The position numbers were made by a program, and so were the translations under genes. From positions 16,484,572-16,539,664 of the forward strand of contig NC_057751.1 of assembly GCF_004010195.1 (NCBI RefSeq): a stretch of DNA of 55,093 bases. The letters run 5' to 3'. Of this stretch, positions 27,401 to 30,400 are shown piece by piece. The notes below the pieces were generated by a model that saw nothing but the letters and a program-made list of their open reading frames with translations, searched no databases and had not been told where the DNA came from. Every line of letters begins with the position of its first letter. The stretch's first letter is position 1. The DNA comes from Chiloscyllium plagiosum (Eukaryota).

Positions 27401-30400
27401 AGATGTTACTTCGTGCTGCATAGCTCTTCAGCTGAAAAATATTAAACCAAAATATTGGCGTAAAATTACCAGTATTTCCCCAATTGCAACTTTATTTGCT
27501 ATAGTCAAGCAATGCCTCAGGACCATGCCTGCAGTCCAGATAATTGACTAGGAAGTTGGAGACAGAGGGAAGAGTTGATGAGAATGCACTCAAATTTAAG
27601 CAGACTCCCTTAGGGATCCATTAGCTTTTCACTAATTTATACATGATTTAGACTTAAACAAATTCCACACAATCCACCTATTGATCAGTGTTTGTTTTTT
27701 TTTGTTGAAGACTACATCTCTATGATGCGATATCCCATCCTCGGTGACGCTTTTCAATTTTAATCATGGGAAATAAAACACTGCCGGTATTTCTGGTAGA
27801 ATTCACAGATGTGAAACTGGTTCCAAATCCCTTCAGCGATCAAACTCCAACTCTGAAACATTTTTGAAACATCGCCCATCATGATCCCCTTGTGAAACGC
27901 TGTGACCACATCTGCAGCGTCGGTTGCATGAGGAACTTTGCCTCAGAGTTGATGAGCTTGTTATCTGAGCTTCAAACACTGCGGCACATCCAGGAGGGGA
28001 AGAGTGACCTGGACACTGTTTCAGGAGGCAGTCACACCTGGTAGATTAAGCACTTCAAATTCAGTCAGTGGCCAGGGACAGCAGCTGAGGCAGGTTGAGG
28101 GATTCTGCAGTCGGGAACGGAGGAGCCTTAACTCTTGACTTTGTCTAACATGTACGAGGTATCGGTGCTTGTGTGGATGAGGAAAAGGGCTGCAGGGAGA
28201 ATGAGCCAACTGACCAGTCCACTGTGGTACAGGAGACCATTCAAGAGGCGGAAGCAAAAAGACAAATGGTAGCAGTAGGGAATCCCATAATTAAGAGGGA
28301 TAGATGGTATCCTTTGTAAACAGGATAGAGAGTCCCACATGGCCAGAGTAAGGGATATCTATGACCGGCTTGAAAGGATATTGGAGAGGGAGGAGGAAGA
28401 GGATCTATGCTGGAACGAACAACATAGGCAAGACTAGGAAAGAGGAGCTGTTGGGTGATTATCAGGAGCTAGAAGCCAAATGATAAAACAGGTCCCCAAA
28501 GGTTATAATTTCCAGATTACTGCCCAAGCCATGTGCGAATTGGCACTAGCACATGAGAATAAGGGAAGTGAACAAGTGGCTAAAAGATTGGTGTGAAAAA
28601 GAGGGGTTCCTCTTCAAGGGGTACTGGCATCAGTATTGGAACAGGAGGGATCTGCACTGCTAGGATGGTCTCCACCTGAACTGAGCTGGGATCACACAAC
28701 TTCAGGTTATAGTCTGACAGGTTTGTTTGGAAGCACTAGCTTTTGGAGCACTGCTCCTTCATCAGGCACCTGATGAAGGAGCGATACTCCGAAAGCTAGT
28801 GCTTCCAATTAAACCTGTTGGCCTATAACCTGGTGTTGTGTGATTTTTAACACTGTACACCCCACTCCAACACCGGCATCTCCAAATCTTGAGCTGGGAT
28901 CAGTATTCTGGTGAAAAGGGTACATTAGGCTGGTTGTCAGGAATTTAAACTAGGAAGTGGGGGCAAAGGGAAGGGTAAAACAAAGTAGAAGGCTGGATTC
29001 AACTGCGTGGAAAGAAATGACAAGGAAGAGGAACTCAGGAGAGGTTATTAAAGTCTCCAGCACAGATACAAATAGGACAGAGAGTTTGGAAAGAGGTCAG
29101 CAAACAAACTTCAAGCACACTTGACAATGAGAAGAGGGACAGTTAATACAGGACTGAAGGTGTTATATCTGAATGCACACAGTATAAGGAATAAGGTAAG
29201 TTAGCTTGTGATGCATATTGAACTTGGCAGGTAATGGCGTGGTGGGCATTACGGAGATGTGGCTGCAAGGGGATCAGGAGTGGGAGCTAAATATTCCTGT
29301 CAAAAAGATAGGCAGGTGGGCAGAGGGGGTGGGGTTGCTTTATTAGTGAGAAATGAAATGAAATCAATAGTAAGAAACAAAGTATGGTGTAGAATCTGGG
29401 TGTGGGTAGAACGGAGGAACTGAAAAAGGTTAAAAAAAAACCTACAGTTGGAGTTATGCAGAGGCCTCCAAACAGTAGTCAGGAGCTGGGGCGCAAGATA
29501 TGCCAGGAGATAGAAAAGGTATGTGAGAAAGGCAAAGTTCTAGTGATCATGGGGGATTTCAATATGCAGTGGACTGGAAAAATCAGGTTGGTAGTGGGTT
29601 GCAAGAAAAGGAACTTGTGGAATTTGTACAAGATAGCTTTTTGGATCCACTTGTGGTGGAGCCCATTAGGGAACAGGCAATACTGGATTTAGTGTTGTGC
29701 AATGAGACAGGCTAGATAAGGGAGCTTCAGGTGAAGGAACCCTTAGAAGGCAGTGATCATGAAATGATTGAATTTACTCTGCAATTTGAGAGGGAGAAGG
29801 CAGAGTCAGAGGTAACAGTATTACAGCTGAATAAAGGCAACTACAGAGGTATGAGGGAGGAGCTGAGTAGGATTGACTAGGAGAGGGGCCTAGCAGGAAA
29901 GACAGTGGAACAGCAATGGGAGGAGTTTCTGGGAGTAATTCAGGAGACACAGCAGAGATTCATCCTGAGGGAAAAAAAAGCATGGTCCAGGAAGGATGAG
30001 GTAACCATGGCTGACGAAGGAAGTCAGGGATAGTGTAAAACCAAAAGGGAAACCTTATAATGTGGCAAAGGGCAGTTGGAAACCAGAGGACTGGGAAGCT
30101 TACAAAGACCAACAGAGGGCAACAAAAAAAAAATAAGGAGAGAGAAGATTAAATAATAGGGTAAGCTAGCCAGTAATATAAAGGAAGACTGGGGAAGTTC
30201 TTTAGATATGTAAAGGGTAAAAGTGGAGCAAAAGTGGAAATTGGACTGCTGGAAAATGACACTGGAGAGAGTTTGGGAAAGTGTGAGGTCATGCATGTCG
30301 ATAGGAAGAAGCATGGACTATTTTCTCAATGGGGAGAAAATTCAGAAGTCTGAAGTGCAAAGAGAATTAGCAGTTGGAATCCAGGATTCTCACCAGGTAA

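Follow-up and report, generated by a model that had tools for sequence, protein, structure and literature searches.

The window (the whole stretch of 55,093 nt analysed here) carries a ZMIZ-like gene on the + strand, whose final coding exon runs to about 31633 and whose last intron holds a decayed CR1-like LINE. Within the ORF1 remnant of that LINE sits a hairpin-shaped insert of 195 bp (28695-28889), flanked by a 13-bp direct repeat. The features of the locus are:

27184..31525, + strand: last intron of the ZMIZ-like gene (GT donor 27184, AG acceptor 31524-25)
27890..30990, + strand: decayed CR1-like LINE, limits approximate, from translations and paralogue alignment
28682..28694, no strand: left target-site duplication (TSD), last 4 bases complementary to 28841-28844
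28695..28766, - strand: inverted tailless pLTR copy (left arm), its hammerhead decayed and its poly(A) hexamer mutated
28767..28801, + strand: minimal type-I hammerhead, with intact core and palindromic loopless stem III
28808..28813, + strand: poly(A) hexamer ATTAAA, from the sequence
28825..28828, + strand: transition of family RNA reads into poly(A) (402 + 504 of 2754 reads, from other copies)
28829..28848, + strand: GU/U-rich tract, positioned as a putative downstream poly(A) element
28845..28889, + strand: one-sided unpaired A+C-rich tail of 45 nt, from the fold and the family 3' ends
28890..28902, no strand: right TSD, from the direct repeat and paralogue alignment

The exon at 171-545 on the + strand gives a zf-MIZ match (E=4.4e-7) that stays below the Pfam cut-off because the exon carries half the domain, and the last exon (after 31525) reads as a ZMIZ-type C-terminus; an atlas search with a ZMIZ exon gave no usable match. 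Exon strand and splice sites agree, so that the intact hammerhead copy does lie sense to the host pre-mRNA, as the first-pass annotation had it. The LINE, which the first-pass annotation did not mention, is presumably CR1-like, judging by motifs in its translations. More decayed CR1-like copies (21194-21400, 24650-24950, 33291-33602 and 51707-53900) served as empty-site references. Elsewhere in the window there are arrays of a 52-bp repeat (1481-3874, 10825-12684 and 13932-14190) and an inverted duplication of 883 bp at 97.5% (10068-10950 versus 11811-12681).

The direct repeat, TGAGCTGGGATCA, stands at 28682-28694 and again at 28890-28902. Its length by itself is weak evidence for a TSD, because, in this repeat-rich window, 36 of 1000 position pairs drawn at random also gave an exact repeat of at least 13 nt. 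An empty-site test was made against the paralogous CR1-like copy at 24650-24950 (minus strand): the left flank with the TSD aligns to offsets 43-173 of that copy and the TSD with the right flank to offsets 161-210; the two alignments overlap by exactly 13, which means that TGAGCTGGGATCA occurs once in the empty site. The last 4 bases of the TSD also match the element (they are complementary to 28841-28844, a microhomology whose 4-mer has a frequency of 0.0037 in the window); the duplication is therefore 9-13 bp long. Sequencing contigs provided no second empty site: none of the best 15 of 228 joints skips the insert, and no contig spans the stretch. An insertion of about 195 bp with a 13-bp TSD, as first described, is thus confirmed by the repeat and by the paralogue, with this refinement of the TSD. 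The inverted arms (28691-28766 and 28769-28844) are 86% complementary and mismatched at 11 of 72 positions; the palindrome of about 74 bp seen at first is real as a pair of arms but imperfect. Folded as RNA, the insert reaches -106.7 kcal/mol (z -14), a stability equalled by 0 of 200 shuffles. An Rfam match to STnc400 (45 bits, gathering score 80) was rejected, as it only mirrors the long hairpin.

Every coordinate of the hammerhead first read in the right arm agrees with the sequence. Stem I pairs CAC (28767-69) with GUG (28799-801) over 3 bp; the core (28770-76) is intact and followed by an extra A at 28777; stem II has 4 bp (28778-81 with 28787-90) and is followed by GAA (28791-93); stem III is the loopless, palindromic AGCU (28794-97), and the predicted cut falls after A28798. 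The right arm thus has all parts of a minimal type-I hammerhead (core, stems I and II, palindromic stem III), which supports the earlier assignment of 28767-28801 to the minimal, dimer-type class. The left arm has not: G12 has been lost by CpG decay, and in the 5' strand of stem I only one base of three remains. It had been described as the same motif with G12 changed; the loss of G12 stands, but most of the 5' stem I strand is gone too. A fifth stem II pair, lost in the right arm, is present in the family majority, in the left arm and in two metagenome contigs, L001 and L002, that are discussed below. A hammerhead model search had been suggested at the outset; in the Rfam search of the locus 0 of 5 matches at E<=5 was a hammerhead, and the scan of the whole window gave no match at gathering score; the Rfam models do not detect the motif.

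Like published minimal hammerheads, that of the locus is of type I, with an extra base between core and stem II, a G10.1-C11.1 pair, a palindromic 15.2-16.2, a short stem I and an opposite-strand partner. It is unlike them in a stem I of 3 bp, a stem II of 4-5 bp and the cut triplet CUA; published pairs lie 100-700 bp apart, whereas the motifs of the locus abut. Dual minimal hammerheads on opposite strands are described in PMC4209133, where minimal hammerheads were inactive as monomers and weak as dimers; of nine frog hammerhead dimers, one cleaved (Li et al., bioRxiv 10.64898/2026.07.22.740005). The ViennaRNA dimer minimum for the locus (-15.6 kcal/mol) pairs the stem III region and leaves stem I unpaired, and the double-hammerhead fold was not recovered. 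When the whole insert is folded, the pair probability of stems I and II is 0.0 and most of the ATTAAA hexamer is predicted to be paired; the earlier suggestion that the hairpin hides the ribozyme accords with this predicted burial. The self-cutting motif of 28767-28801 is likely inactive at this locus.

A scan with the hammerhead pattern returned the two marine metagenome contigs L001 and L002, and 0 hits in viral contigs and in prokaryote genomes. Both come from other organisms, share 32 of 35 hammerhead bases with the locus (the differences are in loop II only) and continue with AATAAA and a GU tract loosely like those of the window, past the hammerhead being only loosely alike to the locus. 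L001 carries an RT remnant head to head with its hammerhead (RVT_1 E=1.5e-5, below the Pfam cut-off), and L002 a GIY-YIG-like ORF about 750 nt upstream of its hammerhead on the same strand, with a cysteine-rich linker (atlas 0.97, PF01541 on 23-34% of members; Pfam directly no match). The regions L001 1-1050 and L002 1-1470 hold PLE RT and GIY-YIG remnants in inverted arrangement, and a short palindrome near L001 375 and L002 740 marks the point where the two contigs part. In the window, tblastn of the L001 and L002 proteins found no PLE ORF remnant (best E=0.94); RT and GIY-YIG genes are seen beside these relatives, but for the family of the window itself no copy linked to an ORF came to light.

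In Penelope-like elements (PLEs) an insertion often comprises a 5'-truncated copy in inverted orientation, with a tail of 30-40 bp on one side (Craig et al. 2021, PMC8557442), and an inverted pLTR, a 31-bp tail, TSDs of 8-10 bp, head-to-head palindromes and a non-LTR element as target have been reported (Arkhipova et al. 2013, PMC3846280). The locus resembles these EN+ PLE complex insertions in its head-to-head truncated copy, its one-sided tail, its TSD (9-13 bp here) and its retroelement target; it is unlike them in having no ORF between the arms, in that both arms start at the hammerhead, and in a tail of 45 nt. Two of the features that mark a pLTR fragment of an EN+ PLE are present, the minimal hammerhead and the inverted 5'-truncated copy with one-sided tail and TSD; a third, a parent element coding for RT plus GIY-YIG endonuclease, was seen for the relatives L001 and L002. 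As in Poseidon PAc of Anolis (Frangieh et al. 2024, PMC11167929), the hammerhead is followed by an AC-rich tail, and the PAc RT start lies 111-118 nt after the start of stem II as against 112 nt for the distal end of the locus, a match that may be chance. Unlike PAc, the locus has no ATG at stem II, and the cysteine-rich linker in the predicted L002 ORF points to the Neptune/Nematis type (PMC8557442). The comparison literature also includes PMC2377424 and PMC6765202; in that on shark palindromic PLEs we found no description of the window's family. The Penelope-like origin proposed by the first-pass annotation is supported by the anatomy, by the size of the family and by the hammerhead shared with the RT- and GIY-YIG-linked L001 and L002.

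For the family at large, 4 of the 24 listed sequencing runs were compared with 28450-29150 at a likeness of at least 85%; among the listed records containing the stretch, none is on record as RNA. Matching contigs amount to 24,774 in X2 and 42,339 in X4 (organism A) and 36,318 in X15 (organism B), figures that are not copy numbers, and summed contig depth is 10^5-10^6 on the insert versus at most about 2x10^4 on the flanks. In the best 24 of 1339 loose-end rows the family consensus extends beyond 28767 by at least 9-11 nt on the upstream side, with hundreds of contigs in each run; the copy at the locus is therefore 5'-truncated. The same rows lose the consensus in two places, about 8 nt after 28851 and a few nt after 28888; we take these to be two favoured 3' ends, separated by about 30 nt, near 28859 and 28889-28891. 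Among the best 15 of 228 joints, head-to-head joints of 28763-66 to 28816-26 recur with varying letters between them; inverted pairs therefore recur with variable centres. An opposite-strand joint 28851/28888 (28 contigs, X4) shows that tail-to-tail pairs occur in the family too. Measured against the family majority letters (best 40 of 122 difference rows), there are 7 changes in the 72 positions of the left arm and 7 or more in the 123 of the right arm with the tail, that is 14 sites at least and 6-10%; CpG decay makes up 4 of 14 differences, among them the loss of G12 in the left arm and that of the fifth stem II pair in the right. An origin of the arms from two different subfamilies was considered and dropped: most arm differences are private, and arms of the second family described next share variants.

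The window holds eight insertions of a second hammerhead family (stem III ACGU, cut after GUC):

19987-20192: second-family insertion
22539-22745: second-family insertion
25281-25445: second-family insertion
38707-38775: second-family insertion
42386-42569: second-family insertion
42612-42819: second-family insertion
49360-49517: second-family insertion
53465-53572: second-family insertion

In six of the eight, inverted arms and a tail on one side lie between TSDs of 10-19 bp; the tails measure 26-66 nt where arms were aligned end to end, and no AATAAA or ATTAAA hexamer was found in the 8 second-family arms checked. Counting the locus, 7 of 9 insertions in the window are palindromic (4 of 4 in the gene span and 3 of 5 downstream, too few for a bias). 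In 6 of the 7 second-family insertions that keep the motif region, the start of the longest arm lies within 4 nt on the upstream side of hammerhead C3; the locus arm starts 3 nt upstream of C3, and the cut site is the start of none. Such clustering of 5' ends at the hammerhead edge is not explained by random truncation and counts against reading these insertions as truncated stumps; a transcription start or an RT stop at that edge is a possible cause.

The clustering would suit a non-autonomous palindromic mini-element, transcribed and re-inserted whole by PLE proteins in trans, as would the lack of coding sequence in all 9 hammerhead-type insertions of the window, and non-autonomous PLE derivatives are on record in the literature. 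We nevertheless hold such an element to be improbable: each run has hundreds of contigs in which the family reaches further upstream than 28767, junctions vary, centres and arm lengths differ among all window copies, and there is no tandem arrangement in the window. The same evidence tells against the retrozyme-like, non-autonomous derivative proposed in the first-pass annotation, as there is no tandem but one head-to-head pair in a family that extends upstream with varying junctions, which is what truncated products of an autonomous PLE should look like. Retrozymes are head-to-tail tandem arrays (PMC7229834; bioRxiv 10.64898/2026.07.22.740005). Non-LTR retrozymes (Cervera and de la Pena 2020, PMC7229834) are likewise short, non-coding and pLTR-related with a type I hammerhead, but they have at least two same-sense motifs and circular RNA; the window has one sense and one antisense copy of the locus motif, in one inverted pair. 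A circular-RNA-type joint is absent from the best 15 of 228 joints, the RNA library being a poly(A) one.

Our preferred reading, which we consider probable, is that the insert is a pair of 5'-truncated pLTR copies of a high-copy PLE, joined head to head, with tail and TSD, likely from a single event and likely inert. The element endonuclease would make staggered nicks 9-13 bp apart; one nicked strand would prime RT at the distal start site (the tail end, 28889), while the other would anneal by the 4-nt microhomology inside the pLTR and prime a second, tailless copy; both cDNAs would stop near the 5' edge of the hammerhead and then be joined. Such two-strand priming resembles the twin priming of L1. 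Both arms begin at least 30 nt upstream of the cut, so the template would have been uncut RNA. In vitro, the anole PLE protein starts RT internally at two sites bounding the tail, hammerhead cleavage being dispensable (PMC11167929).

The same PLE stump might instead owe its inverted arm to self-priming or fold-back, in which the first cDNA, or else an antisense template, copies itself; to this route we give a smaller though real chance. It is the one preferred in PMC3846280, from palindromic junctions and an antisense template, and it would agree with the near-perfect palindrome at the centre of the locus and with private variants common to both arms in several second-family insertions, which imply a single source. 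TSD/pLTR microhomology on the tailless side speaks against it: of 7 TSD-bounded insertions, 4 have a palindrome that enters the TSD by 3-12 nt at the tailless arm, two of them imperfectly. So does the anole PLE protein, which nicks both strands and extends them (PMC11167929). The other 3 of 7 insertions have no junction microhomology, a point against our preferred reading.

Expression of the family was seen in run X21, a single-cell poly(A) library of which about 2% was read (12,955,460 records), with 2754 family reads. Of these, 402 + 504 (906 in all) pass into A-runs behind 28825 and 28828, that is 12-15 nt after ATTAAA (28808-13), ahead of the GU-rich tract and about 28 nt past the predicted cut site, where the genomic sequence has 3 A in 20 nt. 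The two positions are absent from the top loose ends listed for X2, X4 and X15. Only 1 of 2754 reads is at least 99% alike to the locus and flank depth is about 1 or less (in this shallow 2% of X21), so the reads derive from other copies. Read depth at 28798 is 1762, running across the hammerhead; these RNAs are therefore uncut. No pile-up of read ends at the cut site was among the ends listed in X21, a library blind to cleavage because cut 5' pieces have no poly(A) and cut 3' pieces would be of about 28 nt. In X21, 854 reads enter at 28767 from one dominant upstream sequence (agreement 0.73), and 579 of 1762 reads have a 2-nt insertion at 28798 as against 6-8% of contig depth, so that a few loci may dominate the reads; genomic A-runs at a few contributing loci may account for the A-run reads. 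Poly(A) use close behind a PLE hammerhead was not described in the full-text literature searched (Repbase, Dfam and subscription papers lay outside that search).

In the ZMIZ-like pre-mRNA the antisense arm would be made ahead of the hammerhead and the poly(A) signal, and pairing of this arm with both is predicted. Co-option of the hairpin as a host regulator, which would toggle access to the ribozyme or to an intronic poly(A) site that drops the last ZMIZ exon, strikes us as very unlikely. The sense arm keeps the full core and ATTAAA, the family poly(A) site is used in RNA, and the hairpin is predicted to mask both; against this, the copy differs by 6-10% from the family majority, shows CpG decay, has lost a stem II pair, is nested in a decayed LINE, and has that single closely matching read in X21 with next to no flank depth. 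On our preferred reading of a truncated head-to-head pair, the pairing would be a by-product of the route of integration, and selection for it is not implied. Nor is the hairpin needed to explain why the insert is tolerated in an intron, as was suggested at first: a single minimal hammerhead does not cleave as a monomer (PMC4209133), a lone sense motif in the pre-mRNA cannot form a dimer in cis, so that tolerance needs no special cause, and the palindromic form is found downstream of the gene (3 of 5) as well as within its span (4 of 4).

On the features compared, the locus is a decayed stump of a known PLE kind; the less familiar point is that family poly(A) ends lie about 28 bases past the predicted cut. 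With poly(A) use so near the hammerhead, host transcripts could acquire 3' ends from these repeats. We also entertain, as a rather doubtful proposal, that the pLTR is a 3'-end switch, its functional poly(A) site placed about 28 nt beyond the cut and ahead of both RT start sites. If so, element RNAs, and host RNAs borrowing the site, would lose their poly(A) tails on cutting; polyadenylated RNA, being devoid of the 3' tail, would force RT to the 5' pLTR and yield stumps starting at the hammerhead; and the inverted arm would mask the poly(A) site in introns like that of ZMIZ. By itself the locus matters little, as one of very many dead PLE stumps. It is, all the same, a tidy example of an inverted copy plus tail, a kind of product whose formation is still debated in PLE biology, and a genome with many such short insertions could let junction microhomology and counts of 5' ends separate second-strand priming from self-priming.
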